From assembly GCA_003219265.1 (NCBI GenBank), contig QHQE01000001.1, positions 1 through 42,397 on the forward strand: a DNA stretch of 42,397 bases, in the 5' to 3' direction. A program made the translations under genes and the position numbers. Below, in pieces: positions 23,583 to 42,397 of the stretch. Source of the stretch: Verrucomicrobiota bacterium. Lineage in GTDB: Bacteria > Verrucomicrobiota > Verrucomicrobiia > Chthoniobacterales > UBA10450. The notes beneath the pieces are model-generated. The model searched no databases and was not told the DNA's origin. It saw only the letters and a list, made by a program, of their open reading frames with translations. Every line of letters begins with the position of its first letter. Within the stretch, counting starts at the first letter, position 1.

Positions 23583-25223
23583 TTGCTTGTGGCTGCAATA
23601 AACCCTTCCGTGACACACAAGATCGAGAGGCATAACAGATTCCTGCGCATCGCGTGGTGGATTTTGGCGGCGACCGTTCTTGGCCTGACGGTCGCCATTC
23701 GGATTCGCCTTCTTGGAATTCCGCTTGAGCGCGACGAAGGAGAATACGCCTATACCGGTCAACTCATGTTGCAGGGCATTCCGCCGTACAAACTCGCCTA
23801 CAATATGAAGTTCCCGGGAAGTTATGCCGCTTATGCGGTGATGATGTCGATCTTCGGGCAAACGATCACCGGAATTCATTTGGGCTTGCTCTTCCTGAAC
23901 GCTGCCACGGTTGCGCTCGTCTTTTTCCTGGGTCGAAGACTGGTGAATTCGACGGCGGGAATTGCTGCTGCTGCAACTTACGCAGTGCTTTCAGTCAGCC
24001 CGTCGGTTTTGGGTTTCGCCGCTCATGCGACGCACTTCGTAGTACTGTCGGTGCTCAGCGGAGCACTGCTCTTGCTTCGCCAGCCCGATCGACAATCACT
24101 GCCAATTCTTTTCGCCAGCGGCGCGCTTTTTGGAATTGGGTTGCTGATGAAACAGCCGGCCGTGTTTTTTGTTCTGTTCGGCGCGAGCTATCTTTTCTAT
24201 CGCGATTGTCGAGCCCGCGTCGGGTTAAAGAAAACTCTCGTGCAAACTGCCGCGTTCAGCTGCGGCGCGATCATGCCTTTCGGAATTGCCTGCTTTTTTC
24301 TGTGGCGGGCTGGCGTTTTCGCGAAATTTTGGTTCTGGACAGTCGACTATGCGCGCCAATATGGCGGCTTGGTACCTCTGACCGAGGGGATGCACATCTT
24401 CGTTCAGGTTGTTACGAGTGTGATTGGAAGTGGTTGGGCGCTGTGGATATTGGCTGGAATTGGTCTGGTTGTGTCTGCGTGGGATCCGATGATGCGCGCC
24501 AACGCAAGTTTCCTGATCGGCCTGCTGGTGTTTGCAGCGGCCGCGGTTTGTCCGGGATTCTACTTTCGCCCCCACTATTTTGTTTTGCTCCTTCCAGCAA
24601 TTTCGCTACTGGCCGCTCTCGCCGCCGTGAGGGTCTCGGACCTATTGAAGAGTCATCTGAGCCCGGTCCGCCTCGTCCCCTTCCTCTTCTTTGGCGCGGC
24701 GCTAAGCTTGCCGATTTTTCAAGAGAGAAGTTTTCTCTTCATCGCTCCTGTGGAGTCTGCTTCTCGTATGATTTATCCTGAAAGTCCTTTCTCGGAATCG
24801 GTCCGGGTTGCGCAATATATACGGGAACACTCCGCTCCGACCGACACGATTGCAGTCTTGGGTTCCGAGCCTCAGATTTATTTTTATTCGCAACGTCACT
24901 CGGCCACGGGCTACCTCTATACTTACGCGCTGATGGAACCACAACATTACGCGCACCAGATGCAACGGGAAATGATTCACGAGATCGAACGCGCGCGTCC
25001 AAAATATTTGATCTTCGTGGGAATGACCGACTCCTGGTTGAAGCGACCCGGATCCGATGGGTTGATCTTCACTTGGGCACATGATTATATCCCGCAAAAT
25101 TATTCGGTAACCGGCTTGGTCGATCTCAGTGCATTCGATCGCACCCATTATTATTTTGGGGATGTGCCGCGTCCGCTGCCACAGTTGGAAAATTATGTTT
25201 TGATCTGCGAACGGAAATCTTAG
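23583..25223 (+). CDS. GT-C-fold membrane glycosyltransferase, family 39 (ArnT/PMT-like)
   Basis: The protein is polytopic. The acidic loop-1 motif LERDEGEYAYTG follows the first TM helix, and there is a C-terminal soluble domain of about 130 aa. The start is uncertain: TTG at 23583, with GTG alternatives at 23589 and 23610. Confidence 0.7.
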   Translation: MLVAAINPSVTHKIERHNRFLRIAWWILAATVLGLTVAIRIRLLGIPLERDEGEYAYTGQLMLQGIPPYKLAYNMKFPGSYAAYAVMMSIFGQTITGIHLGLLFLNAATVALVFFLGRRLVNSTAGIAAAATYAVLSVSPSVLGFAAHATHFVVLSVLSGALLLLRQPDRQSLPILFASGALFGIGLLMKQPAVFFVLFGASYLFYRDCRARVGLKKTLVQTAAFSCGAIMPFGIACFFLWRAGVFAKFWFWTVDYARQYGGLVPLTEGMHIFVQVVTSVIGSGWALWILAGIGLVVSAWDPMMRANASFLIGLLVFAAAAVCPGFYFRPHYFVLLLPAISLLAALAAVRVSDLLKSHLSPVRLVPFLFFGAALSLPIFQERSFLFIAPVESASRMIYPESPFSESVRVAQYIREHSAPTDTIAVLGSEPQIYFYSQRHSATGYLYTYALMEPQHYAHQMQREMIHEIERARPKYLIFVGMTDSWLKRPGSDGLIFTWAHDYIPQNYSVTGLVDLSAFDRTHYYFGDVPRPLPQLENYVLICERKS

Positions 25224-25311
25224 GCCGTCTTTTCTCGCGAAATTTTAACGCTGCGCGTGCACCTTTATTAGTTCTCAATCAATAGCTGTACCGAAAACGA
25301 ACCGCCGCTGG

Positions 25312-27204
25312 TTGACTGTCAGCGTCTGCGTTTTTCTCGCGGCAATCACGTGGATGGTCTTTGGTCAGACCCTCGGTGACGACTTCATTAACTACGATGA
25401 TCAGAACTACGTCTATGAAAATACTAAAATAACAGGCGGGCTTAACCTGGCCGGCATTGCTTGGGCGTTTAGCCACGTTCATGCCCAGAACTGGCATCCG
25501 CTGACGACAATCTCCCACATGCTGGATTGCCAGCTATACGGATTGAAGGCGGGAGGTCACCACTTTACCAATGTTTTACTGCATACCGTGGCGGTGCTCC
25601 TGCTATTTGCAGTGCTACGGGAAATGACAGACGCACTTTGGCGAAGCGCTTTCGTTGCGGCAGTGTTCGCGATTCATCCCTTGCATGTGGAATCGGTGGC
25701 ATGGGTGGCCGAACGAAAAGACGTCCTCAGCGCAGTATTTTTCATGCTCACTCTGGGCGCCTATATGCGCTATGCGCGCGCGCCATCAATTGCGCGCTAT
25801 CTGACGATGGCAGCGCTTCTCGCTCTTGGCTTAATGTCCAAGCCGATGCTGGTGACGCTCCCTTTTGTCCTTCTGCTTCTGGATTATTGGCCACTTAAGC
25901 GATTTGCTCCGGCGACCCCGGTCGAATCGAAAGCCAAGTGGCTCGATTGGTGGGAACGACAATCCCGAAAGCTTTCGGGACTGATCCTGGAAAAAATCCC
26001 GCTGATCGCACTCTCGGCGATCTCGGGCACCGTTACATTTCTTGCCCAGCGACAGGCCCTCGGCTGGACCGAAGATTTGCCAGTGTCATTACGATTCAAC
26101 AATGCCGTGGTGACCTACATCGCCTATATCTGGCAAATGCTTTGGCCGGTGAAGCTGGCGGTTTTCTATCCGCATCCTGAAAATCGCTTGCCGATTTGGG
26201 AAATCGTCTTGGCACTCGCAGTTCTGATCGCCATCACCGTGGCCGGGATCGTTCTCCGGAGAAAACGGCCTTACTTTATCACTGGATGGCTATGGTATCT
26301 GGGCATGCTGGTGCCGGTGATCGGCGTGATTCAAGTCGGATGGCAGGGCCGGGCCGATCGATACACTTATTTGCCGCAGATTGGCCTATATGTCTTGGCC
26401 GCCTGGGCTGTCGCGGATTTGTCAGCTTCATGGCATCGCCAACGGCAAATTGCAGCCGTCGGAGCCGCGATCCTGCTCGGCGCTTTGACCTGGCACGCGT
26501 GGAATCAAGCTTCCTTTTGGCGCAATAGCGAAACGCTCTGGACCCACACCCTTGCAGTGACCTCAGACAATGATGTCGCTGAGAACAATCTGGGTATTAT
26601 TTTCCTGGGACGCGGGCAGATGGACGAGGCCATCTCTCGATTTCAAACCGCTGTGGATCTGCGGCCCGAAAATGCGCCGGCCCATGATAATCTTGCCAAG
26701 GCTTTTCTTCAAAAGGGTCAAGTGGCCGATGCGATGTTGCATTATCGTAAATTGCTGGAAATCCAGCCGGACAACGTGGAGGCACGCAATATTCTTGGCA
26801 CTGTCCTTATCCAGCAGGGGCGCGTTAGGGAAGCAATTGAGCAATGGCAGGAAACCCTGGCGATGCAGCCGGAAAACGGGAACGCCAAGAGTAACCTTGC
26901 ATGGGTGTTTGCAACTTATCCGGAAGAATCGGTCCGAAACGGAACACAGGCAGTCCAACTGGCAGCGCAGGCGTTACAACTTTCTGGTGGTAAGAATGCA
27001 ATCATTCTTCGAACGTTGGCTGCTGCTTATGCCGAGAGTGGCCGCTTTGCCGAAGCAGTCCATACTGCGGAGCGCGGTTTGGAGCTAGCCATCGGCCAGG
27101 GCAACGCTCATTTGGCAGCCGAGCTTCAACAGAATATCGCGCTCTATCGAATGAACTCGCCGCTGCGCGATACGAGTCCCGTAGGTGTCCACCGCCCACC
27201 ATAG
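25312..27204 (+). CDS. TMTC/DUF1736-like GT-C membrane domain fused to C-terminal TPR repeats (paralog A1)
   Basis: Loop-1 reads NYDDQNYVYEN. HHFTNVLLH and HPLHVESVAWVAERKDVL (the DUF1736-like core) are present. There are about 10 TM segments, then TPR repeats (NNLGIIFLGRGQMDEAISRFQTAVDLRPENAPAH...). TTG is the only start candidate in the open frame, so the N-terminus is uncertain. Confidence 0.8.
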   Translation: MTVSVCVFLAAITWMVFGQTLGDDFINYDDQNYVYENTKITGGLNLAGIAWAFSHVHAQNWHPLTTISHMLDCQLYGLKAGGHHFTNVLLHTVAVLLLFAVLREMTDALWRSAFVAAVFAIHPLHVESVAWVAERKDVLSAVFFMLTLGAYMRYARAPSIARYLTMAALLALGLMSKPMLVTLPFVLLLLDYWPLKRFAPATPVESKAKWLDWWERQSRKLSGLILEKIPLIALSAISGTVTFLAQRQALGWTEDLPVSLRFNNAVVTYIAYIWQMLWPVKLAVFYPHPENRLPIWEIVLALAVLIAITVAGIVLRRKRPYFITGWLWYLGMLVPVIGVIQVGWQGRADRYTYLPQIGLYVLAAWAVADLSASWHRQRQIAAVGAAILLGALTWHAWNQASFWRNSETLWTHTLAVTSDNDVAENNLGIIFLGRGQMDEAISRFQTAVDLRPENAPAHDNLAKAFLQKGQVADAMLHYRKLLEIQPDNVEARNILGTVLIQQGRVREAIEQWQETLAMQPENGNAKSNLAWVFATYPEESVRNGTQAVQLAAQALQLSGGKNAIILRTLAAAYAESGRFAEAVHTAERGLELAIGQGNAHLAAELQQNIALYRMNSPLRDTSPVGVHRPP

Positions 27205-27261
27205 CTACTAGCTCTTCTTTGCCGCACACGTGCAGTATCCATGAACGAAAGCAAGAGACCC

Positions 27262-29370
27262 CTAGTTCGGTGCTTCGCGGTAAGGCGATCCCGCCTGATA
27301 AATCGCGATTTCTTTTTGGAGCTGCGCGGCCAGTGCGCTGTCGCCTTGCGCCTCCGCCAGCCGCAAGGCGTCTCGCGCAATCTCAATCGCCTTCGCGAAT
27401 TGCCCGGTCTCTGCATAAGCCGCGGCCAGTGTGCGGCGAACGATCAGATTCGCGCCGCTTGAAAACTGATCGGCCTGCCGAGCCAATTCGAGCGCTTTGT
27501 TGCCATTTCGCGATGACGCGTTAGAACAGGTGGCCAATATCCAAGCGAGATTGTTTAATGCAGGAACGGATCGCGGAGAGATCGTTAAAGCCTTTTCGTA
27601 GTTCATGATTGCGTCCGAAACTTGGCCCTTTTGATCAAGAGCAATGGCAAGATTAATGCGCGCTTCTGCATGCTCAGGCTGGATCGACAAGGCAGCTCGG
27701 CAATGGGAGATTGCTGCGTCTAGTTCGCCTTTCTGGAGCAAGGCAGTACTGAGACTATAGAGAGCAATGACATAATAAGGCCGCAGCGCCAGCGCTGTTT
27801 CATAACGAACGATCGCGTCATCCACTAGTCTCTTTTGGAAAAGAACATTGCCGAGAGCAACCTGGGCGTCAGGATCAAACGGCTGAAGCATTACTGCCTT
27901 CTGGCAATAGAGAAGGGCCTCGTCGGTTTCACCTTTTTGGAGAAGCGCGTTGCCAAGATTATAATCCGCGTCCGAGAAATCTGGCTGCATTTGCAAAGTT
28001 TTCCGGTAATGAGCGATTGCCTCGTCAATTTCGCCTTTCTGAAAAAGTACGATGCCCAAATTATTGTGAGCCATCCAGCAGGTGGGGTTTCTTGCCAGCG
28101 TCGTCCGCCAGAGCGCTTCGATGTCAGCATACATCGTGCTTTGCCGCCAAGTCAGCACCGCCAAGGTCGCAACCATGGCGACCGCCGTGCCAAAGATCAA
28201 AGGACGGCTCCTTTCGAAAGTGCCAGCTAGACTTGCCACACCTGCCGAAACCAGCGCAATTGGTCCGATGCAGGCCAAATACTGGTAATGATCCGCCACA
28301 AACGCGTAGCGAAATGTGTAGAGCATGATCAAACCCGATACGGGACTGAGTGTTGCCACAAAGAACACCGCCGCGACCTCCACACCCCGCCCGACGTAGC
28401 GTCTCGCGAAGTAAATCGCCGCGCATAATCCAACTGCCGTCAACAACCATACATAGTCCAGAAGGTGGGTCGGCGAGATTGTCCATCGCGGATAAATAAA
28501 AGTCAGAGTCGATGGCCAAATCAGTTTGCCCAAATAGAACCAAACGGCGCGGCTGGCGATGAGGATGCGCTCGATGGGACCCAGCGCAAAGAGTGCCCCG
28601 CGCGTGCCTTGATGGTAGCGTTCCCACCAGACCGCGACCAAGCCCATCCCCAAACCAAGAAGGAAAAATGGGACGATCTGAAGAATACTTTCCCAATTGA
28701 TCCGCTTTCTTTGCAGCCACAAAATCAAGAGCAACGCCGCCGGTAGCGTGCATGCGGTGGTTTTGGCCGAAAGCGCCAGCCCATAAAGGACCAGTGCCAG
28801 TCCGTAGAAGCGCCATGGCCGCTTGGTTCGCTCGTCGACAAAGACCGCCCAGGCAAGCAGCGTGAGCAAGAAGAAACATCCCATGAGCACATTTTTTCGT
28901 TCCGTGATCCAGGCGACCGATTCCACCTGCACCGGGTGCAGCGCGAAAATCGCTCCAGCCAGCCACGCGCCGGGCACGTTCAAACGCGCCAGGAGCCGCC
29001 AGACCAGCAGAGCGTTCGCGACATGAAGAAGAATGTTGACCCAATGATAACCCAACGGGTTCAGCCCCCAAAGCGCGTGCTCGATCCGAAAAGTGGTATA
29101 AACCAGCGGGAAATATTGTGACGGGGAGTCGAACGAAAACCAAATCCGGCGCAAACCGTCGCGCGCGGTCAGCAACTCGTTATTCGTCACATAAGCATCA
29201 TCATCCCAGAGGAAGCCGCCATGCCATGCGGGGCGGTAGGCGAAAACCGTAGCTGCGGCCAAGATTAGAACGAAGAGCCAGACGCGCGATCGAGAACCAA
29301 GCGGCCAGCTAGTGACTCTATATGACATTTCCCGCGAGTGGATCATCCTTAGGCGTTGCCACTGCGTCAA
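27262..29370 (-). CDS. TMTC/DUF1736-like GT-C membrane domain fused to C-terminal TPR repeats (paralog B1)
   Basis: Loop-1 reads FLWDDDAYVTNN. YHWVNILLH and HPVQVESVAWITERKNVL are present, followed by a C-terminal array of about 8 TPR repeats. In-frame ATG alternatives exist at codons 9 and 15. Confidence 0.8.
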   Translation of the reverse strand: MTQWQRLRMIHSREMSYRVTSWPLGSRSRVWLFVLILAAATVFAYRPAWHGGFLWDDDAYVTNNELLTARDGLRRIWFSFDSPSQYFPLVYTTFRIEHALWGLNPLGYHWVNILLHVANALLVWRLLARLNVPGAWLAGAIFALHPVQVESVAWITERKNVLMGCFFLLTLLAWAVFVDERTKRPWRFYGLALVLYGLALSAKTTACTLPAALLLILWLQRKRINWESILQIVPFFLLGLGMGLVAVWWERYHQGTRGALFALGPIERILIASRAVWFYLGKLIWPSTLTFIYPRWTISPTHLLDYVWLLTAVGLCAAIYFARRYVGRGVEVAAVFFVATLSPVSGLIMLYTFRYAFVADHYQYLACIGPIALVSAGVASLAGTFERSRPLIFGTAVAMVATLAVLTWRQSTMYADIEALWRTTLARNPTCWMAHNNLGIVLFQKGEIDEAIAHYRKTLQMQPDFSDADYNLGNALLQKGETDEALLYCQKAVMLQPFDPDAQVALGNVLFQKRLVDDAIVRYETALALRPYYVIALYSLSTALLQKGELDAAISHCRAALSIQPEHAEARINLAIALDQKGQVSDAIMNYEKALTISPRSVPALNNLAWILATCSNASSRNGNKALELARQADQFSSGANLIVRRTLAAAYAETGQFAKAIEIARDALRLAEAQGDSALAAQLQKEIAIYQAGSPYREAPN

Positions 29371-29408: not shown

Positions 29409-31601
29409 CTATCCCCGTTCCTTGTGATAAGGAAGACCAGACTGGTAGAGAGCGATTTCCTTGCGAAGCGCATTGATTAAAATGCTATCGTCTTTGGCAT
29501 CAGCTAGCTGCAACGCGTGTTCAGCGATTCGTATTGCGTCGGTAAAACGGCCGGTCTCGGCGTAAGCCGCAGCAAGGACCCGTAGAATAACTGGCCGATT
29601 TCCACCAGACAGACGGCTAGCCTTTTCAGCCCACAAAACCGCTTCCGATCCGTTTCTAAGTGATGGATCTGAACAAGTCGCCAGCAGCCAGGCAAGATTG
29701 CTTTGCGCGGCCACATTTTCCGGAGCACTCCTGAGAGCCTCTCTGTAGTGAGCGATCGCATCTTGCGGACGGCCTTTCTTAAGAAATGCGCTTCCCAGGT
29801 TTGCATGGGCATCTGCGTTGCCAGGCTGCAATTCGAGTGTTTTCTGGTAATGAGTAATGGCCTCGTCTGTTCGGCCTTTTCGAAGTAGAGCACTTGCAAG
29901 GTTGTACTGGGCCTCGGCGTGATTCGGCGATAAGGCCAGCCCAGCTAAGTAATAGACGATCGCGCCGTCCATATCGCCCTTGGAAAGAAGGGCGTTCGCC
30001 AGATTGCAGGAGGCATCGGCGTAATCAGGCTGAATCGCCAAGGCCTTTTGGTAGTGAACGATCGCCTCGTCCACTCGGCCGATTTGAAAAAACGTACTGC
30101 CGAGGTTGTTGTGCGCTTCCGGGTCGGCAGGATTTACAGCGAGCGCTTTTTCGTAATGGACGATCGCCTCCTCAAATTCGCCCTTCTCCACGAGAATGCG
30201 TGCGAGATTATAATGTGCTTCCGCGTAACCCGGCCGCAGGGCCACAGCCTGACGATAATGGGCAACTGCCTGGTCAGTTTCGCCTTTAGCGCGAAGAGCG
30301 ATACCCAAATTGTAATGAGCCATCCAACAACCAGGATTTTTTGCCAACGTTCCTGTGTACAACGCTACGATATCGTGATAAATGGCGTTTTGGCGCCACG
30401 TTAAAACGCCGAGTACGAGCAAGAGTAGCCCGCATACCGCCGGCCGGAAAGACGATTTCCATCCAGTGGCAGCGATCCCCTCTGTGATGCCAGCTCCGGC
30501 TAAGGCAAGCGGTCCCATGCTCGCGAGATACTGGAAATGGTCGCTTACAAACGAATAGCGGAAGAAATAAACGCTGAAAAAGCCCAGGACGGGAAATAGC
30601 GAAATCACAAAGTATGCGGCCGCAAACGATACGGAGCGCTTCCATTTTCCACGGGTGAGCCACAAAATAACCAGGCCGACCAACCCTGCCAGAAGCGGCA
30701 GATAGGCGGTCAGTCGTGACAGACTAATCTCCCACCGCGGGTAAACGAAAATGAGGGGATGGGGCCAGATCAGTTTGCCGAGATAAAACCATATCGTGCG
30801 TCCAGCTATGATGAGTCGTTCCGGCCAAGTTTGCGCCCACTCCGGACCGCTGGCGCCCGCGTGGAATTTCTGTTCCCAAATCGTCCAAACACTCGCGAGC
30901 GCAGAAATCAGAACGAACGGAATTAGGGCCATGAGGTTACGCGATTGGATTTGACCTCTGCGCCACCAGATACAAAGGGCGAGCACGGCCGGCAACATCA
31001 CCGTGGAAGGTTTGCTCGCGATCGCCATGACAAAAAACAGAAGTGCCCAACCAAGTCGCCGCCAGCGCAGGCGATTGCCCGTTCCTTCCGAGTCCACCTT
31101 CAAAAAGCAGAGGATCGACAAAAGGTAAAACAGGCACGACTGAGTGTTTTTCAACTCGGTTACCCACGCAACCGATTGCACCATCACCGGGTGCAGCCCC
31201 CAAAGTGCTGCCCCGAGCCACGCCCCGCGAACACCAAGTTCTCGCAACACGCGCCACAGCAACACCGCCGAGCCTGCGTGCATGAGCACGTTGAGAATGT
31301 GGTACGGCGACGGACTCAGGCCGACGAACTTGTGCAAAGTCCAAAAGGTAGTGAGCACCAGCGGGTAATAGACCGCTCGCGTAGTCGTCCAGATATCCTT
31401 CAATCCCAACGGTCCGACGACGCACGGGTTCTGCGTCAGATGCGATTCGTCGTCCCAAATGAATCCGGCATTAAGGACTCGGGCGTAGGACACAAAAACG
31501 AGGGCGATTAAGAGGAACGCCGAAAGCCAGTCTCGTTGCCACACCGGTCTTTGTACGTCGGGCCGTTCGCTAACAACGGCCGGGGTAGCGGACTTGGTCA
31601 T
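29409..31601 (-). CDS. TMTC/DUF1736-like GT-C membrane domain fused to C-terminal TPR repeats (paralog B2)
   Basis: Loop-1 reads FIWDDESHLTQN. YHILNVLMH and HPVMVQSVAWVTELKNT are present, followed by a C-terminal TPR array. It lies 38 nt upstream of B1 on the same strand, so co-transcription is likely. Confidence 0.8.
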   Translation of the reverse strand: MTKSATPAVVSERPDVQRPVWQRDWLSAFLLIALVFVSYARVLNAGFIWDDESHLTQNPCVVGPLGLKDIWTTTRAVYYPLVLTTFWTLHKFVGLSPSPYHILNVLMHAGSAVLLWRVLRELGVRGAWLGAALWGLHPVMVQSVAWVTELKNTQSCLFYLLSILCFLKVDSEGTGNRLRWRRLGWALLFFVMAIASKPSTVMLPAVLALCIWWRRGQIQSRNLMALIPFVLISALASVWTIWEQKFHAGASGPEWAQTWPERLIIAGRTIWFYLGKLIWPHPLIFVYPRWEISLSRLTAYLPLLAGLVGLVILWLTRGKWKRSVSFAAAYFVISLFPVLGFFSVYFFRYSFVSDHFQYLASMGPLALAGAGITEGIAATGWKSSFRPAVCGLLLLVLGVLTWRQNAIYHDIVALYTGTLAKNPGCWMAHYNLGIALRAKGETDQAVAHYRQAVALRPGYAEAHYNLARILVEKGEFEEAIVHYEKALAVNPADPEAHNNLGSTFFQIGRVDEAIVHYQKALAIQPDYADASCNLANALLSKGDMDGAIVYYLAGLALSPNHAEAQYNLASALLRKGRTDEAITHYQKTLELQPGNADAHANLGSAFLKKGRPQDAIAHYREALRSAPENVAAQSNLAWLLATCSDPSLRNGSEAVLWAEKASRLSGGNRPVILRVLAAAYAETGRFTDAIRIAEHALQLADAKDDSILINALRKEIALYQSGLPYHKERG

Positions 31602-34222: not shown

Positions 34223-37200
34223 TTAGAATCTCTTCTTTATCCCGGCGTACCAGAACCGGCCTTTGATCGTGGCAAGCGACTCATCGTAGCCGTTCTCAAA
34301 AGAGCCGGCAACAAATGGCGGATCTGCGTCCAAAACGTTCTGCATCCCAAGCTGGATCGTCGTGTTATTTAACCAAGCCCGCCATCCACAGGGATTGTAC
34401 TCGGCTGTGGAGACAGGCATGACGTTTTTGTCTTTGCCGCCCATCCTCACGTTCTTACCACCCTCTTTGGCTAAGCCGGGCACCTCGGCCGGAGCCGGCG
34501 GCGGCAGGTTGAACGTGTACGATACAATCAGGTCAAGCGTGGTCCACGGAGCTATTTTCCGCGCCTTTTTACCTGTCAGGCCAGTGGCAGGATCAGTTCT
34601 CGGGGTTTGTGGTTTGCCACCCACCAACGAGATATTGTCATCTTCATATTGGGCGACCCAGTGGACTACCGCGCCGATATCGAAACCCTGCAGCCATGAG
34701 TCAGCCGGACCGTCATAGAACAGACTGAAATTGGCCCGATGCCGCGGCAGCGAGCTGGTCAGGCTGAATGCCGACGGCAGAAACTCGCCTGCGATACCGA
34801 AGCGTTTTGTATCGGGCATGGTCTGAAGCTCAGCCCGGGCCAACCAGGTGCCGTTGACTGTGGCGGTCAGCCTGCCAAAATCCCCGGCCCCAAACATCGA
34901 AGATTCGAGAATATAGATCGCCTCGTAGTCGAGACCTTCGAAAATCGCACCAGCAAGGTTTTGCGACGGATCGAGGACAAAAATAACTGGTCCAAGCTCG
35001 CCAGGAATCGTAGAAACACCACGAGTAACCAAGCCCGGAAGATTATGCGAGATAATGAATTGCGCGCCCAGGGCCGACACGATGTCACGCATGTCGATAT
35101 GCCACCAGTCCGCACTCAGCGTCAGGCCTTTGAGCCATTTCGGACTGTAAATCGCGCCATAGCTATATTCATAGGCGACTTCCGGATGCAAGAAAGGATT
35201 TCCGGTAATACGTTCCTCGACCTGCGGCTCGGTTTGAGAAGAGAATGGATCGTGTACTATTGGGAAGCTCTGCAGGCCGGCAGGCGAAAGCTCCTGTACT
35301 GTCGGCGCATGAAACGCTTCGGTGTAGCTGCCACGCAAGGTCAGCGCTCCGATCCACTTGGGATCAAGCGGCTCCCAGCGAACGGAGACCTTCGGCCTCT
35401 GCGTTTGGTACGTGGTGTGTGCCGACGCCGTGACTGAAGTTGCAGAGGTATTCTGACTGTACCATTCCTCGCGCTCGGCGAAGTCAATCTCGAAGCTGTA
35501 CAAGCCGGGGAAGTTCCACGTTGGGCTAGTGACCGGGACCCGCACTTCCTCGTAGACGGACTTTACATCGCGGTTCACCCTTGCACCTTCTCGATCCACC
35601 GAGCCAATCGTTTGAAACGTCGTATTGAGCGAGTCAGGAGTGCGCGTCCATCTCTCTCCATGGTAATCAGCGCCGATCGCAAAGCCGACCGGCCCGGCCG
35701 GAAGATTGAACAGGTCACCGTCAATCTTGGCATACCAGAGAGGCAACTCAAAGCTACCGGTATTATGCAGGTTGACATAAACCCTGTTTTTGGCCGCGTT
35801 CGTGTTTACAGCAAGGAGGCCCTGGAACGGATTAAAAGCCGTGGCCGGGTTCGTATCCAGCAGCGCCGCACGCAGCCCAGGCTGGCTGACCTCGCCTATG
35901 GATATGTCCTGCCCATCGTTCCGAGCGTAACGGAAACCCAGTTCCCAATTCCAATTCTTGAAATAATCGCCAAATTCTCCCATCTCACCTTTGAGCCCAA
36001 CGTCGAAGATCGAATCCCAGAAGGTGTACTGCTCATGTCTGGGGCCGGTGTCGCTAATGCCGCGGAAACGAACCCCCGTATACATCGGGACAGGGACTCC
36101 GTTAATATTCAAAGTTGCATTCGCGACCGTGAACGGATTAAATGCATTTTGGATTGGCACGCTGATGCCGGAAGGACTGAAGTTCCTGCCCAAGTCACCA
36201 TCACCACTCACGTGGAATGGGTCGGGCGTAAACGGAACAGCCGCCAGGGATGCATCGAAAAACGAGCGCGTGTACTTAAAGTCCGCAAACACCACCAGGT
36301 ATTTGTCGCACAGATCGCGGGTGAACGAACCGTAGAAAGTTTGCCGATCCGCCGGCGGAAGGTCTGGCGTAAAAGCCGCGAAGTTGAAGAACTGATAGTT
36401 CCCATCCGGATAAGGAGCGAGCACCCCGGGCCTGATATAGAATGGAGAAGTCGCGGCGTTCGGAGCTGAGTGTGGCGTCGGCGAGCCAGAGCCGAAAAAC
36501 AATCTCGGGATCAACCTGAAGCTTCCAACGCGACCAGGTTCGTTTCCACTCCGGGCGTCGAACCCGCCAAACCGGGTGAAATTCCCGTTGCTCGAAATGT
36601 CGCGGTCCCGGCTAAAGAGGCCGCCGGTACGCTGCCAGAAATCAGCAATGACCACAACGTCAGTCTTATCATCTCCGGTGCCGGCTTTGAGCCATGCCTC
36701 CCACTCACCCATCTCGTTGGACGCTCCCAGGTTTGTGTTCCCGTAACTGCCCCCGATCTCAAGCCCGCGGAACTTGTGGACCAAAAAGTAGTTGACCACA
36801 CCGGACACCGCGTCGGCGCCATAAATAGCCGAGGCGCCATCCTTCAAAATTTCGAGATGATCGACCAACGCAAACGGAATGAGTTGGACGTCGTAGCCGC
36901 CGTTCAGTGAACTCGTCGCCCAGCGCTTGCCATCTATCAGGACCAAAGTCTCTTTCGGGAGCAGACCGCGCAAGTTGATCTGCACAGTGCCGTCACCGCC
37001 ATTGGCGATGTTCTGGTTAACCGTTCCGCCTGCCTCCTGTGGCAGAATGGTTGTGAGGTCCGTTGCGTTGCGGATGCCCAGTTTTTCGATGTCTTGTGGC
37101 CGATATGTGTCCACGGGATTTGGCCCGGTTTCTTCCGCAGTCGGAATGTTTGACCCGGTCACGATCACGCGTTCAGCGACGGCTTCGCCGGCCGGTGCTG

Positions 37201-37318
37201 GGGCTGCCGGGGCCGCCAACTGAGCGAATGCGTTCGATGCGAAAATTAAAGGAAATCCAACGCTCGCCACAAAAGCAACGCGAAGGGTTCCAAGTTTATT
37301 TAGCACGTTTTTTATCAT
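34223..37318 (-). CDS. TonB-dependent outer-membrane receptor (large, ~1030 aa)
   Basis: The ATG at 37318 is preceded by GGAG 6 nt upstream and gives the signal peptide MIKNVLNKLGTLRVAFVASVGFPLIFASNAFA. Plug motifs are VIVTGSNIP, DIEKLGIRNATDLTTILP and INLRGL..TLVLIDGKR. A long barrel ends in YAGIKKRF (terminal Phe). Confidence 0.9.
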   Translation of the reverse strand: MIKNVLNKLGTLRVAFVASVGFPLIFASNAFAQLAAPAAPAPAGEAVAERVIVTGSNIPTAEETGPNPVDTYRPQDIEKLGIRNATDLTTILPQEAGGTVNQNIANGGDGTVQINLRGLLPKETLVLIDGKRWATSSLNGGYDVQLIPFALVDHLEILKDGASAIYGADAVSGVVNYFLVHKFRGLEIGGSYGNTNLGASNEMGEWEAWLKAGTGDDKTDVVVIADFWQRTGGLFSRDRDISSNGNFTRFGGFDARSGNEPGRVGSFRLIPRLFFGSGSPTPHSAPNAATSPFYIRPGVLAPYPDGNYQFFNFAAFTPDLPPADRQTFYGSFTRDLCDKYLVVFADFKYTRSFFDASLAAVPFTPDPFHVSGDGDLGRNFSPSGISVPIQNAFNPFTVANATLNINGVPVPMYTGVRFRGISDTGPRHEQYTFWDSIFDVGLKGEMGEFGDYFKNWNWELGFRYARNDGQDISIGEVSQPGLRAALLDTNPATAFNPFQGLLAVNTNAAKNRVYVNLHNTGSFELPLWYAKIDGDLFNLPAGPVGFAIGADYHGERWTRTPDSLNTTFQTIGSVDREGARVNRDVKSVYEEVRVPVTSPTWNFPGLYSFEIDFAEREEWYSQNTSATSVTASAHTTYQTQRPKVSVRWEPLDPKWIGALTLRGSYTEAFHAPTVQELSPAGLQSFPIVHDPFSSQTEPQVEERITGNPFLHPEVAYEYSYGAIYSPKWLKGLTLSADWWHIDMRDIVSALGAQFIISHNLPGLVTRGVSTIPGELGPVIFVLDPSQNLAGAIFEGLDYEAIYILESSMFGAGDFGRLTATVNGTWLARAELQTMPDTKRFGIAGEFLPSAFSLTSSLPRHRANFSLFYDGPADSWLQGFDIGAVVHWVAQYEDDNISLVGGKPQTPRTDPATGLTGKKARKIAPWTTLDLIVSYTFNLPPPAPAEVPGLAKEGGKNVRMGGKDKNVMPVSTAEYNPCGWRAWLNNTTIQLGMQNVLDADPPFVAGSFENGYDESLATIKGRFWYAGIKKRF

Positions 37319-37749
37319 TGGTTTCTCCATGGGTTTGGTTAGGTTTGTGTAGGGATTAGGCATGATTTTGGGGTCTGACAAGGTTTTTTTTCACTTTTTT
37401 AAAGATTTTTTTGAACGGGCGCCCGTGGTCGTTTGTCACGCTCCGCCCTGTTTTTTGTCGTTTTATCGGATTTCGCAGCGGCTGCCTAGAAAAAAATTAA
37501 GAAATTTTTGCGGGCGGTCAGCGCCCGTCGGCTGCCCCAATTTCATTAGCGATGCAATGCAAAGTCGATCGTGCGCTTTTCATGAAATACGCAAAGAGGT
37601 GCACATTGCGTGCCATTCATGCGCCGCTTCGCGGATTATTTTTTAGCACCGACTGCTGACAGTTTCGACTTCACTGCGAGGGACCGGATAGTTTCCAAGC
37701 GGTGATCACATCAACGGCTGCGATATCCGTTGTGAAGGGATGCGTGCAC

Positions 37750-37804: not shown

Positions 37805-38506
37805 TTAAAAGTGCGCTCCTCCCTTGAAAAAGATTCGTTCGCGCTCCACATCCGCACCCCGGCGCAGAAAGAAATCGCACAGTTCGGGCGTATAGTAATT
37901 GCCACCGAATGTTGGATTGAGGCCGAAAAAAATGTTGCCCCCCGGTACAAGGTGCCGCTGCTGCAAATCGCGCAAGAAAAAATCCCATTCCGTTGGGCCC
38001 CAGAGACGTTCCGTCGGATAGTCCAAATTAAAATTGATCGAGAACGCGGTGATCCAATCGAATTTTTGGCCAAGATCAGGCAGCGCTTCGAATGCTTTGA
38101 TCCTCCACACGACGCGCGGCACGTCGAAAATATTGAGCAACTCAGCGTAAAGCGACACTTGGTCTATGTCCAGACCCAGGACGGAGTGACCAAGCTTTTT
38201 CAGGATGAACAAAAAGAATCCGCCGCCGCAGCCAAGATCGAGCACGCGCTTGGGCGCGGAGCGATGAAGTTTTAGATCTTGCACGCGTTCGCGATTCAGT
38301 CTCAACCAAGGATCAACATTCGCGTACTTGGCGTACCCGGCGGGCGAGCCGGCGTAGCGGTGCTGGATTTCGCGCAGATGTTCCGCATCGATGCCCGCGC
38401 GCAACGGCCCGAGTGGAAGCCGGAAAATAGAGCGTTGTGCTCTGCGCCAAGCGCGTCGATAGGTCAACCGCTGCGTGAGTTTGTTGATTTTATGGTAAAG
38501 CTTCAT
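37805..38506 (-). CDS. class I SAM-dependent methyltransferase
   Basis: Motif I is VLDLGCGGGFF, followed by an acidic loop (VLGLDID). 233 aa, with an N-terminal extension of about 85 aa before motif I. The substrate is not inferable. Confidence 0.8.
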   Translation of the reverse strand: MKLYHKINKLTQRLTYRRAWRRAQRSIFRLPLGPLRAGIDAEHLREIQHRYAGSPAGYAKYANVDPWLRLNRERVQDLKLHRSAPKRVLDLGCGGGFFLFILKKLGHSVLGLDIDQVSLYAELLNIFDVPRVVWRIKAFEALPDLGQKFDWITAFSINFNLDYPTERLWGPTEWDFFLRDLQQRHLVPGGNIFFGLNPTFGGNYYTPELCDFFLRRGADVERERIFFKGGAHF

Positions 38507-38622
38507 TTCGAAATTGACTGGCGCGCGCCGACGGGGCCAATAAATTGGTGCATGATGCTGACGTTACAAAAGAGTCCCGATGAATTCCAATTCCGTGCGG
38601 TGCTCTTCAGCGCAAGATCGCA

Positions 38623-38745
38623 TCAGTGCGGAGGATGAAATCCGAAATCGGTCTTCAATTTTGGCCAAAGCCCATCGATGAACCAATCTCTTTTGATAGA
38701 TCCGGCATTGTTGGCAACCAGCGTTTCCGCTCTGGCCCAGCGGGT
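38623..38745 (-). pseudogene. remnant of the 3-prime end of a paralog of the spermidine-synthase-like gene (fragment A)
   Basis: 38629-38731 aligns with 40477-40579, with about 14 mismatches in 103 nt by hand count. It encodes ...NNAGSIKRDWFIDGLWPKLKTDFGFHPPH-stop, against ...GNAGSIKRDWFIDWLWAKLETDFGFRPPAD-stop in the intact gene. There is no upstream ORF continuation. Confidence 0.65.
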
Positions 38746-38827
38746 CGTCAGCGAAACGATTCGGCTATTGGAGATTGAGAGAGATCAAGGATCGAGAGGC
38801 AGCGTCAATTTCGTCGCGCCTGCCTAG
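38746..38827 (+). pseudogene. second remnant of the same paralog, inverted relative to fragment A (fragment B)
   Basis: 38746-38809 matches the reverse complement of 40629-40689 at roughly 85-90% by eye. On the plus strand it reads VSETIRLLEIERDQGSRGSVN..., against VSEAIRLLEMERNRESRGVND in the intact minus-strand gene. Confidence 0.6.
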
Positions 38828-38847
38828 CAAAAGAAAATGTCGCCGAG

Positions 38848-40455
38848 CTAAACAGAACCGCCCATATGGAAGAAATTGTAGCGGCTCAGAAACGCTGGCC
38901 AGTTAATAATGACCTGCGAAACTGAGACGATGAGCACGATTCCTCCGAGCACGATTAATCGCAACCAATTGCGAGTAATTTGGCACATCGTCCAATCCAG
39001 TGCCCGAGCGTAAAGCAGGAAAAACGGAATCGCAGCCGCGCCGAGCAGTCTTCCGGAAGTGAAGTACGGATGCTCACGAGATGGATAGACGCAACCTCCA
39101 AAATCGAACGCGATTGACAAAAGCGCAACGAACGCGACCAGAGCAGCGAAACTTAAGAGCGCCAACCACAGGCTCTGTCGCTGAAGATACGTCAGCTTTG
39201 CTACGCTCGGAAAGAGACTGATGGTGGCCAAGCCAATCGCAAGGGTGGAAGAGATCCAGTAGAACGCATCGGTGAACGCGGAACCAAGTCGTTGGCCATG
39301 CCAGATAAATTCGCCTCGCCAGAAACTGGCCATCAGTTCCGGCCAGAACTCCTTTAATCCATCGAATGTGAAAATTGGATGCGGCCACCAATCACCGACG
39401 GTTTTGCGAGTCCATCCGAGGAACTCAATTTTCGAGCCGGTGGCAGTTAGATCGCCGAAAGTGTGATGGTTCCACGCAAGCCAGAGAGCGATTGGCACGG
39501 CCGCAGAAATTGTTAGCGCCGCGAGTGATACGATGGTCGTGCCAATCGCTCCGCCGCGAGCGAGCTGTCGCACCTTGAAGATTGCCGCGATGCCCGCCAC
39601 TGCCAGTAAAGGAACGTTAGTCGTCTTGACGAGGCAAGTGGTGGCGAGCGCGAGCCCGGTCCAAATTGCGAGACGCACACTCGGTCGTTCGGCCTGCAAT
39701 AATTTCACCAGACCGACAAACGCGATTCCAAAACAAAGTGGAGAGAGTACATCGCTCTGGATGGAATAGAAAGCGCTCTGCGGCCACACCGCCAGCAACA
39801 GCGGAACGCTTAATCGCGACAATTGTCGATCGGGAAAAACAGATTGCGCCGCAACGAACCCCACCCACACAAGACCTGCGGCGGCGAACACGTTCGAAAA
39901 ACGAATCCAATACAGCAGCCAGCCGCCTTTAAGGGCACAGGCGCGGCCAAGATTTAGCCATGCACCGGCAATGGCATAGTAAAGCGGAGGTTCCCCTGAT
40001 TCGTGATTTTGATTGGATTGCCACCAGGCCGCAATCCTGTTTACTACCTCGTCGCGCTCCTCAGCCGGCAACGTCCAGTTTGGCGGCGGAAACTGCCTTG
40101 TATTAAACTGCCGCGGACTCGCAAAGTACTCGGGCGTGCCGTAGAGAGAGAAATAATAGGCAGCCTCGGCGGAGAAATAGCCCAGATCGCGCGGTGAATC
40201 GCAATGCGCGTATTTCATTACCAGATCCACGTGCGCCTGCTCATCGACATTGTTGAAAAACGGAAAGGCCGCAGCAAACGTGAAGACGCGGACTGCGGCT
40301 ATCGCGCAGAGGAGCAAGACGATAATGCGTTCGTGCCCCGTTGACAATGTTATTGGAGCGTTCGTCTTGCTCACCAATGTGCGCAGTGCGAGTTGTAAAC
40401 AGTCATTGCCGGTCAGCCCGATTCTCGCTGAGTTGCAATTTCCGCGCAGGAGCAA
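38848..40455 (-). CDS. polytopic membrane protein, GT-C-like (DUF2142/ArnT-like) putative glycosyltransferase
   Basis: About 12 hydrophobic segments. The first-loop acidic motif FFNNVDEQAHVD resembles the DE..H loop motif of DUF2142/GT-C proteins. The start is uncertain: TTG at 40455, or GTG at 40374. It begins only 11 nt after the upstream stop. Confidence 0.6.
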   Translation of the reverse strand: MLLRGNCNSARIGLTGNDCLQLALRTLVSKTNAPITLSTGHERIIVLLLCAIAAVRVFTFAAAFPFFNNVDEQAHVDLVMKYAHCDSPRDLGYFSAEAAYYFSLYGTPEYFASPRQFNTRQFPPPNWTLPAEERDEVVNRIAAWWQSNQNHESGEPPLYYAIAGAWLNLGRACALKGGWLLYWIRFSNVFAAAGLVWVGFVAAQSVFPDRQLSRLSVPLLLAVWPQSAFYSIQSDVLSPLCFGIAFVGLVKLLQAERPSVRLAIWTGLALATTCLVKTTNVPLLAVAGIAAIFKVRQLARGGAIGTTIVSLAALTISAAVPIALWLAWNHHTFGDLTATGSKIEFLGWTRKTVGDWWPHPIFTFDGLKEFWPELMASFWRGEFIWHGQRLGSAFTDAFYWISSTLAIGLATISLFPSVAKLTYLQRQSLWLALLSFAALVAFVALLSIAFDFGGCVYPSREHPYFTSGRLLGAAAIPFFLLYARALDWTMCQITRNWLRLIVLGGIVLIVSVSQVIINWPAFLSRYNFFHMGGSV

Positions 40456-40466
40456 CGTGCTTCACC

Positions 40467-42397
40467 TTAATCAGCGGGAGGACGAAATCCGAAATCCGTC
40501 TCCAATTTTGCCCACAGCCAATCGATGAACCAATCTCTCTTGATCGATCCGGCGTTGCCCGCAACCAGCGTTTCCGCTTTGTCGACACTGCCGTTCAAGC
40601 AGTAGAGATAAGTGAGCAGCAATATATCATTGACGCCTCTCGATTCTCGATTTCTCTCCATCTCCAATAGCCGAATTGCTTCGCTGACGTGCCGCGAAGC
40701 CAGCGCTCCCGCAACCAAATCCGGCAGCGTTTCGGTGGGCGGGCTCTCGGAATTCAGCGCGACCCGCTCAGCGATCGAGAGCCGGAATTCATCGCTGCGC
40801 AAGACCTCCAAGACCGGCGTGCGCAAGCGTGAACCGCGCAGGTAAAGGTCCAGTTCGGCCAGCTTATTGCTGCCCATCAGTTCAGAAAGATAGCGCGATT
40901 CTCGGACCGCAAAAAATGAGTGAAGTGATTTGTTCAGCGTCTCGGGCCAAATCCTGTTGATCAGTGGAGACCAAAGGAATCGGTGAACGGCGGCGGCGGC
41001 TTCCATGTAGGGCCAGGCGAAGCGGTGTGTCGCCTGTTCATCCCAAGGCGCATCGGACAGACGCTTCGGATAAAAATCTGTCAAAGGCGCTATATCACGT
41101 GTAATGCGATCGATTTCTTCACCGTCCATCAGAAACAGGGCGGCCAACTGCTGCGGAACCTCGACGCCAATGCGCCTCAAGTCTGCGCCGGTGCCCGCCT
41201 CGCTCCACAAGCGTCCCATCTCTTCTTCTCTGACTCCGCGGCCCGGTCCTTTGATGCCCATCATAATCCATTCCTGATCGGCGCTGGCCCAGACCGACGC
41301 GTTCGAGAACGCATTATGAAACGCGCGGAGGATTGCCTTCGCCTCAGCCACTTTGAGCTGGTTAATCGGAAGCCAAAAGGTCGCGATTCCGCCTTCCTTC
41401 AGCCGGCTGTGCATGAGCGAAAAAAATTCCTCGGTGTAGAGATTGACTGAACCCGCCACCTTGGGTGGCGGCGGTTCTCCAGAAATAATGTCGTACTGCC
41501 GCGGGCTGGCCTGGAGGAAAAAGCGGCCGTCTTGAACAAACGCAGTGACACGAGGATCGCGCAGCGGATTCGAGTAGTTAATGCCCGAATATGAATCAGC
41601 GAGATCGAACACCTCCTTCGATATGTCCACGACGTCGATCCGCTTCAGATGCGACTCACGAACGAAGGCGTCTGCCGTAACCCCGCAGCCGTAACAAATG
41701 AGCAGCACGTCGGTCGATTCGGGACGGAAAGCCAACGGAATATACCCGAACAGCCTCATATAGCGTTGGCTGTGCGGGTTTGTGGCGGACATCGAAAACG
41801 CGTTCGTCAGCCGAAGCAATTGGAATGTGTCAGAGATGCCCTCCACTTTTTTGATCGGATGCGCGAGCGAGCGCCCATAATCATCCATTTCGTAAGGGCG
41901 GGTGGCATGGGCGAAGTGCGCTTCGTCGCGGTGATACGGAAAGATTGCGAGAATAAGAATCAGAACTGCGGAAAGCCCAATGATGATTAAGCCTACTGCT
42001 CGTCGAAATGACCAACTCGACCGTCCGCTCACAAGAATCCCGATCAGAGCATAACCCACAGAGCAGAATATAAGGCTCCATTGGAAACCGATCGTGGGCA
42101 GAAGCGCGAAACCAGCCAGCAGTGGACCAGCCGCCGCCCCAGTCGTGTTGAACAGAGTCGTTAGGCCAATGCTATTCATTCGGTCGCCCACGCTGGCCTG
42201 AACGGATGCAAGAATGGATGGAAAGAGAATTCCCGAGAGAAACGCGACGGGAAACATTAATGCGAGCGAGAGGAGCCCGATATTCCACCAAGCGACTTCA
42301 AACGAACCGGCGCGCGCTTGAACCGCCTTCCCAGGGAAGAACAAGTATGAAAGAAGAGTTGTAATCGCCGCCAGTAACAAGAAAACGGGCAGCAAGT
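40467..42397 (-). CDS. fused polytopic-membrane / spermidine-synthase-like (class I methyltransferase fold) protein with a helical TPR-like C-terminal domain; 5-prime partial at the window edge
   Basis: The ORF runs off the window end. N-terminal TM helices are followed by LLICYGCGVTADAF, VVDISKEV and DIISGEPPPPKVAGSVNLYTEEFF, which resembles the spermidine synthase signature D..D..P...LYT.EF. The C-terminal ~190 aa are helical-repeat-like. Confidence 0.75.
   Translation of the reverse strand, partial: LLPVFLLLAAITTLLSYLFFPGKAVQARAGSFEVAWWNIGLLSLALMFPVAFLSGILFPSILASVQASVGDRMNSIGLTTLFNTTGAAAGPLLAGFALLPTIGFQWSLIFCSVGYALIGILVSGRSSWSFRRAVGLIIIGLSAVLILILAIFPYHRDEAHFAHATRPYEMDDYGRSLAHPIKKVEGISDTFQLLRLTNAFSMSATNPHSQRYMRLFGYIPLAFRPESTDVLLICYGCGVTADAFVRESHLKRIDVVDISKEVFDLADSYSGINYSNPLRDPRVTAFVQDGRFFLQASPRQYDIISGEPPPPKVAGSVNLYTEEFFSLMHSRLKEGGIATFWLPINQLKVAEAKAILRAFHNAFSNASVWASADQEWIMMGIKGPGRGVREEEMGRLWSEAGTGADLRRIGVEVPQQLAALFLMDGEEIDRITRDIAPLTDFYPKRLSDAPWDEQATHRFAWPYMEAAAAVHRFLWSPLINRIWPETLNKSLHSFFAVRESRYLSELMGSNKLAELDLYLRGSRLRTPVLEVLRSDEFRLSIAERVALNSESPPTETLPDLVAGALASRHVSEAIRLLEMERNRESRGVNDILLLTYLYCLNGSVDKAETLVAGNAGSIKRDWFIDWLWAKLETDFGFRPPAD

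Follow-up and report, generated by a model that had tools for sequence, protein, structure and literature searches.

A candidate multi-enzyme locus for periplasmic glycosylation with TPR-fused, PMT_2-type and DUF2142-like GT-C proteins in a soil verrucomicrobium

Introduction

Several well-described bacterial systems, ArnC/ArnE-F/ArnT, GtrB/GtrA/GtrC, CsbB/GtcA/YfhO and the actinobacterial Ppm1/PMT pair, follow a common scheme: a glycosyltransferase of family GT2 makes a polyprenyl-phosphate-linked sugar, and a GT-C-type glycosyltransferase transfers this sugar outside the cytoplasm. The acceptor is a glycan or a lipid when Gtr enzymes glucosylate the O-antigen, when ArnT acts on lipid A and when YfhO acts on teichoic acids; likewise, the mycobacterial Emb, Aft and PimE enzymes use a single lipid-linked sugar to assemble arabinan and mannan. 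For the eukaryotic protein TMEM260, acceptor binding mediated by TPR repeats has been demonstrated. TMTC1-4 are eukaryotic GT-C O-mannosyltransferases for cadherins (PMC7801869). TfpW of P. aeruginosa is a protein of 646 amino acids (aa) with 11 transmembrane (TM) helices; it requires a DDx motif in its first periplasmic loop, exposes a C-terminal TPR domain to the periplasm and O-glycosylates pilin with D-arabinofuranose from a lipid-linked sugar (bioRxiv 10.1101/2020.04.19.049825). Proteins of the DUF2142 family, finally, are polytopic and are encoded beside a GT2 in streptococcal and lactococcal rgp/cwps glycan loci (PMC9746298, PMC12599335). Here we analyse a stretch of 42,397 nucleotides (nt) from a Verrucomicrobiota bacterium (GCA_003219265.1, contig QHQE01000001.1, positions 1 to 42,397; hereafter the window), in which the part from 23583 onwards carries nine genes, six of them for putative GT-C proteins. 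On balance, this region is probably a multi-enzyme locus for glycosylation at the periplasmic face of the inner membrane, which would use a polyprenyl-phosphate-linked monosaccharide as donor in a Udaeobacter-like soil verrucomicrobium of the Chthoniobacterales.

Results and discussion

The nine long open reading frames (ORFs) between 23583 and the window end were named g1 to g9 from an ORF listing and their translations. An earlier note on this DNA had proposed six GT-C-type proteins here, a claim that the profile matches and motif conservation described below support. g1 (23583-25223, plus strand) encodes a polytopic PMT_2-type protein of 546 aa. Four TMTC-like proteins follow, each combining a membrane domain with TPR repeats: g2 (25312-27204, plus strand, 630 aa) and its paralog g5 (31823-34012, plus strand, 729 aa), as well as g3 (27262-29370, minus strand, 702 aa) and g4 (29409-31601, minus strand, 730 aa), which form a second subfamily. 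The sixth candidate, g8 (38848-40455, minus strand), is an ORF of 535 aa for a DUF2142-like polytopic protein with the sequence FNNVDEQAH after the first TM helix (TM1). Hydropathy profiles of g1-g5 and g8 showed the polytopic domain of 8-13 TM helices that is typical of GT-C enzymes, and all six proteins carried an acidic motif (DxD, DD or DE) in the first extracytoplasmic loop. All motifs that had been quoted earlier were found immediately behind the first hydrophobic helix, namely DEGEY at residue 51 of g1, YDD at residue 28 of g2, WDDD at residue 55 of g3, WDDE at residue 49 of g4, YDD at residue 54 of g5 and VDEQAH at residue 70 of g8. The DD pair was invariant both in 16 TMTC-like N-terminal domains (N-domains) from five phyla and in 70 representatives sharing less than 50% identity. 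Moreover, the sequence ERDEGEY after TM1 was invariant among g1 homologs from five phyla and NNVDEQA among g8 homologs. This conservation of the motifs is well beyond chance.

The g1 protein matched the Pfam model PMT_2 (PF13231) with 44.5 bits (cut-off 26.1) and no other Pfam family. It contains no TPR and ends in about 170 non-membrane residues. Since only the generic PMT_2 model was matched, and neither PMT (PF02366) nor MIR or PMT_4TMC at E<=10, the label "family-39-like" that the protein had received proved too specific. As for the fusions g2-g5, they are paralogs over their full length, with 51% identity between g2 and g5, 42% between g3 and g4 and about 30% across the pairs (E 1e-57 to 1e-78; g3 and g2, for instance, share 31%). 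Strong TPR matches were found in the C-terminal 200-300 residues of each. In g2, a membrane domain of about 405 aa precedes TPR matches within residues 420-600. In g5, about 70 extra residues are inserted ahead of the last TM helix, behind which the TPR domain begins. The subfamilies differ in detail (ADHY in g3, ADRY in g2 and g5), and g3 retains the DD, HP, E, K and D.Y positions common to the whole TMTC-like family. The N-domains approach the PMT_2 model to different degrees: g5 exceeded the cut-off when the N-domain was scored alone (26.5 bits), g2 reached 24.2 bits and g3 and g4 gave no match. Similarly, PMT_2 was matched by 7 of the 16 N-domains from five phyla (DUF2142 by one of the 16) and by 21 of the 70 diverse representatives (best E 4.9e-10). 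TPR matches were found in 63 of these 70. A profile built from 150 N-domains aligned in hhalign with the g1 family at a probability of 94.8% (E 5e-8, 321 collinear columns) and with the g8 family at 61.8%. An exhaustive profile search with the four N-domains of the window returned 115,492 representatives of clusters defined at 50% identity when the limit was E<=1e-3, and 34,437 when it was E<=1e-30. Judging from these profile matches, the TMTC-like N-domain family is very large and one of the largest GT-C families that we have seen.

Membership of g2-g5 in DUF1736, which had been assumed before, did not withstand the profile searches: none of the four matched PF08409 even at E<=10, no match occurred in the 16 N-domains, and the family was not among the 25 commonest in the 70 diverse representatives. 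By these criteria, g2-g5 do not belong to the DUF1736-defined TMTC family, nor does g1 belong to the GT39 PMTs. What g2-g5 have in common with TMTC1-4 is an N-terminal domain with about 11 TM helices, behind which a non-cytoplasmic TPR domain is located (the membrane side being predicted for the bacterial proteins), a strict DD pair in the first external loop and an HP.H.E motif (FAVHPIHT in TMTC3, FAIHPLHVE here). The residues invariant throughout the bacterial family, DD after TM1, an HP pair, one Glu and two Lys, resemble by eye the DD, HP.H.E and Lys positions that have been reported in TMTCs and ArnT (PMC7801869). Many homologs are, in addition, labelled "protein O-mannosyl-transferase" by JGI. 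In contrast to TMTC1-4, however, the bacterial proteins lack DUF1736, by which Pfam defines TMTCs and which corresponds to their TM7-TM8 loop; the TMTC "DW" motif was not seen, the Arg of "AERV" is not conserved across the bacterial family, and the setting is a bacterial periplasm. The AlphaFold2 (AF2) model of g2 (pLDDT 81, pTM 0.76) comprised about 11 TM helices and then the TPR domain. Together with the K/R-rich loops at residues 193-222, 316-320 and 372-379, the helix count and the positive-inside rule fit a topology with 11 TM helices, the N-terminus inside and the TPR domain outside the cytoplasm.

The closest bacterial likeness of g2-g5 is to TfpW, which shares the architecture of membrane domain plus TPR, as judged by description and not by sequence. 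The earlier statement that bacterial homologs of TMTCs have no assigned substrate therefore needs qualifying, since TfpW, compared in this way, glycosylates pilin. tfpW lies directly downstream of pilA; the present locus encodes four paralogs and two other GT-C types. A TfpW-like pilin operon was ruled out, as no type IV pilin N-terminal signature was present in any frame of the window.

For g8, the assignment to DUF2142 (PF09913) stood in part: the window protein scored 28.9 bits, just below the cut-off of 30.1, but precomputed PF09913 matches were carried by 120 of 120 g8 homologs among the matches listed (62-96% identity). g8 thus approaches the same Pfam family as the rgp/cwps proteins, which differ in being predicted side-chain enzymes of Gram-positive cell-wall polysaccharides. 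The g8 relatives came mostly from metagenome-assembled genomes (MAGs) named Verrucomicrobia, Chthoniobacterales or Candidatus Udaeobacter. As homologs begin at about residue 31 of the window ORF, the true start of g8 is probably located 27-30 codons inside the ORF, near 40374. The AF2 model of g8 showed about 12 long helices but was weak (pLDDT 58, shallow alignment). A Foldseek search of 350,542 chains with this weak model nonetheless returned GT-C enzymes as all of the top 14 matches (PimE, Pmt4, ALG3, Pmt1/2, AftB, ArnT, EmbB, AftA, DPY19 and ALG12), albeit at E 0.025-0.5 and TM-scores of 0.24-0.32. A sequence search of the PDB with g8 gave no match. The mycobacterial Emb/Aft/PimE/Mpt sets, which are represented among these structural matches, also encode several GT-C enzymes together that use one polyprenyl-phosphate sugar. 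They differ from the present locus in that there is no sequence-level similarity, that enzymes of our clusters carry TPR domains and that no arabinose or decaprenyl pathway genes are present here; moreover, our clusters occur in diderm Verrucomicrobia and other phyla.

To compare gene neighbourhoods, we collected 60 genomic loci (designated by L numbers) encoding g8 relatives and annotated their ORFs by tblastn, blastp and custom hidden Markov models. The earlier note had named co-occurrence of the gene set across Verrucomicrobiota as one check on its proposal, and genes scattered in related genomes as a refutation. The families were found to recur together in close relatives as well as in unrelated genomes, so that the proposal was not refuted by this test. 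In about 30 loci from Chthoniobacterales, the end of a gene for a 521-aa PMT_2-like GT-C (GTC521; PMT_2 score 20-22 bits) overlaps the start of g8 by 4 nt. A small GT2 gene precedes GTC521 in five of these loci (L007, L008, L009, L011 and L012), and two of the five (L011 and L012) display the full string g9-GT2-GTC521-g8-g7-g6 on one strand. In L019 and L035, g8 adjoins g1 in place of GTC521, with TMTC-like genes around. Distant phyla, in which g8 is only 36-44% identical, showed related arrangements. In L045 (Armatimonadota), two PMT-like genes, g8, g1, a GT2 and three to four TMTC-like genes lie on one strand with short gaps, and L046 (Thermodesulfobacteriota) combines two TMTC-like genes, g1, a GT2, a gene for a HEAT-repeat membrane protein and g8. 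L061 (Terriglobales) contains an ArnC-like GT2, a TMTC-like gene and g8. Furthermore, g1 is found beside g8 in L051 (Myxococcota), L053 (Acidobacteriaceae) and L060, and L040 (Verrucomicrobiia) holds two TMTC-like genes and g8. Overall, a neighbouring g1 or TMTC-like gene was located within 10 kb in 7 of the roughly 14 distant loci, for which a rough estimate assuming ten copies per genome gives a chance expectation of a few percent. The cluster GT2s had their best NCBIfam matches in synthases of polyprenyl- or dolichyl-phosphate sugars, namely AglJ, PpgS, Dol-P-hexose transferase, PgfS and ArnC, none reaching the curated cut-off; they thus best match the GT2 subgroup of the three-component systems named in the Introduction. 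Those systems, however, have one GT-C per GT2, whereas up to eight are found here, TPR domains being fused to some of them. In two relatives anchored on g2 (L068, 90% identity, and L069, 71%), g1 is directly upstream of the g2-type gene. This g1-g2 pair is also retained in L035, and its genes share 4 nt in L069. Both g2-anchored relatives keep further TMTC-like genes, the TonB receptor and a methyltransferase, and L069 also the MFS/spermidine-synthase gene.

These neighbourhoods support a real system, as far as gene order can indicate. The same data must be weighed against the alternative that no system exists and that the region is a hotspot at which members of a very large paralog family are duplicated in tandem and reshuffled, these members acting independently and g6, g7 and g9 being bystanders. 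The recent paralog pairs g2/g5 and g3/g4 would fit such a hotspot, as would the enormous family size, the differences in gene order, orientation and content between close strains, the deletions, repeat scar and frameshifted copy described below, the presence of at least four transcription units and the restriction of g6, g7 and g9 linkage to one lineage. It does not readily account for the recurrence of three GT-C families and a GT2, tightly packed on one strand, in L045, L046, L051, L053 and L061, for the start/stop codon overlaps of GTC521-g8 and g1-g2, or for the frequency of neighbours in the distant loci. We consider this alternative unlikely.

Two further observations concern these loci. 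Some Verrucomicrobiota and Phycisphaerales genomes encode two to four g8-type paralogs (in L037:1541-12687, in L038:3363-15429, and in L048 and L052 at about 9.9-13.2 kb). These paralogs form tandem arrays in L037, L048 and L052 and are separated by a few kb in L038. PMT_2-type and TMTC-like neighbours are missing in all four loci, so that the rule of pairing between g8 and a PMT_2-type gene is not universal. Two loci binned as Pyrinomonadaceae (Acidobacteriota; L014) and Dormiibacterota (L035) contain g8, g9, g1 and TMTC-like genes that are 59-71% identical to those of the window, the contigs being given as 62-68% identical to the verrucomicrobial genes in another comparison; the taxonomic labels are probably MAG binning errors rather than signs of recent transfer.

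No GT2 gene was found in the window by tblastn with three cluster-associated GT2s or by Pfam scans over its whole length, which bears out the earlier note on this point and on the incompleteness of the system as seen here. Comparison with L011 offered an explanation. The window is collinear with L011 7281-7558 (the g9 end and the GT2 leader) and then jumps to L011 10053-10166 (the g8 start), so that the junction at 40319-40403 (minus strand) falls where relatives carry GT2 and GTC521. Given the order g9-GT2-GTC521-g8 in L011, L008, L009 and L012, about 2.5 kb with both genes has been deleted in the lineage of the window. The missing GT2 thus reflects a deletion in this lineage and not a feature of the system. 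The long g8 ORF itself begins in the former GT2 leader, as it shares the peptide RGNCNSARI with the GT2 ORF of L011. A sister lineage with 96% identity in g8 shares the g9-g8 junction. Additional traces of rearrangement were detected in the g8-g7 spacer (38630-38800), where a repeat search revealed two stretches derived from g9: about 105-113 nt that repeat its 3' end in direct orientation and in degenerate form (87-88% identity; cf. 40477-40581), and about 72-80 nt that repeat adjacent g9 sequence in inverted orientation (cf. 40635-40706). g8 is therefore bracketed by g9-derived repeats. These repeats were present in contigs of the same strain and absent downstream of g8 in relatives, and they are a further sign of rearrangement at this spot.

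The deletion and the scar raise the question of whether the locus is decaying in this strain after the loss of GT2 and GTC521, the remaining genes being on their way to pseudogenes. Apart from these two marks, the state of g4 and g3 in a sister strain and a 12-aa deletion in g9 would be in line with decay. In that strain (L001:16907-20682), the g4 homolog is frameshifted or truncated to a 616-aa ORF (called as ORFs of 173 and 200 aa at the source), and the g3 homolog lacks its first 60 codons, which points to pseudogenisation or to recombination between adjacent paralogs. All nine ORFs are, however, intact in the window. Ratios of nonsynonymous to synonymous substitution (dN/dS) between the two deletion-carrying lineages were 0.26 for g8, 0.10 for g9 and 0.17 for g7, and comparison with the 90%-identity relative gave 0.155 for g1 and 0.166 for g2. 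Values of 0.10-0.26 indicate genes under purifying selection rather than decay. In addition, g1 can replace GTC521 as the partner of g8, as in seven other loci. Decay of the locus is thus very improbable. As a side observation, L039 contains two small ORFs of 150 and 160 aa (9436-9888 and 15508-15990) with similar N-termini (…IIFSTKNRE… and …CVWATKNRD…), one between GTC521 and g8 and the other downstream of the receptor gene, which may be transposase genes of a mobile element and would then be in keeping with a locus prone to recombination.

Taken together, we propose the following route for the glycosylation locus. A small cytoplasm-facing GT2 of the Dpm1/ArnC/AglJ type would load a sugar onto polyprenyl phosphate; because the in-cluster gene was deleted in the lineage of the window, another genomic copy would have to supply the donor here. 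A flippase would then move the lipid-linked sugar across the membrane, and the GT-C proteins, whose family membership was computed as above, would transfer it in the periplasm by means of the acidic pair in the first periplasmic loop. g2-g5 would most likely select protein acceptors through their TPR domains, as TMTC1-4, TMEM260 and TfpW are understood to do. g1 and g8, which have no TPR, may either elongate the glycan or act on a different acceptor. The almost constant position of g8-type genes beside a PMT_2-type enzyme of 520-550 aa (GTC521 or g1) suggests that the two work as a pair.

Several points weigh against this proposal. The nine genes lie on both strands, and the alternation of strands implies at least four transcription units. 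Many g8 homologs occur alone or in tandem, with no TMTC-like neighbour (L032, L034, L037, L038, L047, L050 and L052), and with a family of 115,492 clusters some of the adjacency could be due to chance or tandem duplication. The strain of the window has neither the in-cluster GT2 nor GTC521. A small flippase of the GtrA, ArnE/F or GtcA type was not present in the scanned proteins, small ORFs not having been searched systematically. With the full-length g2 model, the top 50 Foldseek matches were all TPR proteins, so that this search speaks only to the TPR part of the protein. Searches of PDB sequences returned TPR only for g2, nothing for g1 and chance matches only for the N-domain and g1-family profiles. 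Alignments of the N-domain, g8 and g1 profiles with ArnT of E. coli MG1655 were not significant, a null result that says little because the template was a single sequence and too weak. In the literature, no activity, donor sugar or acceptor has been reported for any member of these families, and our search turned up no work on the function of bacterial TMTC-like proteins or of fused MFS/spermidine synthases; for DUF2142, it yielded locus descriptions only.

The nature of the acceptor is where the main rival reading comes in, the independent paralogs and decay considered above being weaker. In its fuller form, our proposal is that the TPR-fused GT-C proteins are the bacterial counterpart of eukaryotic TMTC/TMEM260 and carry out a widespread periplasmic protein O-glycosylation. 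The TPR domains of the paralogs would each target a different class of envelope protein, a Dpm1-like GT2 together with a PMT_2-type, a DUF2142-type and several TPR-fused GT-C proteins would constitute the complete pathway, and the TPR-less pair would extend the glycan. We put this extended version forward as a possibility only, and tentatively. The rival keeps this chemistry and has the sugar transferred to a glycan or lipid instead, as in the decoration or assembly of lipopolysaccharide, capsule, exopolysaccharide (EPS) or a cell-wall polymer. This would agree with the occurrence of known DUF2142 proteins solely in streptococcal and lactococcal cell-wall polysaccharide loci, and with the surroundings of the cluster in L069, which adjoins two YfhO genes, a Wzx-type flippase, a GT4 and TylF-like sugar methyltransferases. 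An EPS-type polyprenyl glycosylphosphotransferase is encoded about 5 kb past the window end (TIGR03025, 369 bits, above cut-off), and the single GT2 for up to eight GT-C proteins in L045 recalls linkage-specific enzymes sharing a donor. TPR domains are also found on the polysaccharide-export proteins BcsC and PgaA, though these matches were weak. On the other hand, protein is the acceptor in every characterised TPR-fused GT-C (TMTC, TMEM260 and TfpW), polysaccharide genes adjoin the cluster in one relative only, and a riboflavin synthase gene on the other strand separates the cluster from the glycosylphosphotransferase gene. A glycan or lipid acceptor therefore seems to us doubtful, if well worth keeping in view.

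Beside the GT-C genes, the earlier note had listed a TonB-dependent receptor, a SAM-dependent methyltransferase and a fusion of membrane and spermidine-synthase-like parts, all of which were confirmed by Pfam or NCBIfam matches. g6 (34223-37381, minus strand) is an ORF of 1052 aa for a TonB-dependent outer-membrane receptor (Plug, 1.3e-16); on identical contigs, its start is called about 21 codons later, resulting in 1031 aa. g7 (37805-38506, minus strand) encodes a soluble class I methyltransferase of 233 aa (Methyltransf_25/23/11), exact copies of which occur on 19 grassland-soil metagenome contigs and on the NCBI MAG contig QHRL01000019.1. g9 (40467-42397, minus strand) encodes a fusion of an MFS-like and a spermidine-synthase-like domain, whose 5' end lies beyond the window, the frame being open at 42397. 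It matched Pfam Spermine_synth and NCBIfam NF037959 for fused MFS/spermidine synthases (cut-off 40) with 56 bits as a fragment and 99.9 at full length, which is 947 aa on identical contigs (seen in L001). Linkage of g6, g7 and g9 to GT-C genes was seen only within the Udaeobacter-like lineage, so that function cannot be separated from inherited gene order; the idea that the MFS domain of g9 substitutes for a flippase is speculative. Inspection by eye showed CYGCGVT in g9 where spermidine synthases have GGGDGG, suggesting that g9 may not bind decarboxylated SAM. The 12 residues absent from the window copy of g9 are present in the near-identical copy L001:5104-7947 (FQLLR[RELFGEPYYYRL]LTNAF).

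Past the window edge, identical contigs encode the rest of g9, a 645-aa TPR protein, the riboflavin synthase on the other strand and the glycosylphosphotransferase mentioned above. The 645-aa protein (L001:3071-5008, about 1 kb past the window end) combines TPR with a His-rich polytopic N-domain that differs from the TMTC-like type, has no Pfam match and contains the motifs HHLPGMIRAYGD, WHGMMQTYG, EVFHDVQYL and HFYYDGFIWK. Its homolog is located between the g5 and g4 homologs in L013 and directly upstream of the g4 homolog in L016 and L057; hence, it may belong to the cluster.

With regard to overall layout, the nine genes comprise eight for membrane or outer-membrane proteins, g7 being the soluble one; the earlier count of ten genes, nine of them for membrane proteins, was thus one too high. 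Gaps between neighbouring cluster genes range from 11 to 423 nt. The GC content of the region (0.52-0.57) equals that of the rest of the window, which rules out a compositional island and identifies the region as a gene cluster. Promoter and terminator scans of the cluster gave counts equal to those of shuffled sequence. Rfam and tRNA scans detected nothing in the cluster, the sole match in the window being a tRNA-Tyr at 2351-2434.

According to Pfam scans, the first 23.5 kb of the window contain housekeeping genes unrelated to the cluster. Among the upstream genes are those for a DegT/ArnB-type sugar aminotransferase (1105-2292), two ketoacyl-ACP synthases (3549-5908) and a UDP-glucose 6-dehydrogenase (8368-9681), and the segment 1105-9681 may represent a separate sugar or lipid modification pathway. 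No Pfam match was obtained for an ORF of 882 aa within it (5632-8280), which overlaps the preceding gene at its start and is therefore probably longer than the true gene. A protein of 1442 aa (12203-16531, minus strand) combines a small number of TPR repeats in its central part with several hydrophobic stretches; L068, the relative with 90% identity, has it conserved upstream of the cluster.

Conclusions

The finding follows the known scheme of lipid-linked sugars and GT-C enzymes. The enzyme types belong to known families and would not surprise a specialist; their combination across phyla is unstudied. To our knowledge, the glycosylation of proteins and of the envelope has hardly been explored in Verrucomicrobia, Acidobacteria, Armatimonadota and comparable phyla that dominate soils. 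For the TMTC-like N-domain family, we found no characterised member, and public records describe its proteins as "TPR repeat protein" or, by transfer, as "protein O-mannosyl-transferase". The compact operons of L045 and L046, in which a donor synthase is combined with three GT-C types, constitute a testable unit for which heterologous expression would be possible. If the acceptors are proteins, the system would be a prokaryotic relative of the TMTC/TMEM260 O-mannosylation pathways, which are relevant to human developmental disease. Candidatus Udaeobacter is among the most abundant soil bacteria. The gain, loss and reshuffling of these genes from strain to strain suggest a variable cell-surface trait in Candidatus Udaeobacter, with exposure to phages or predators as a possible driver.

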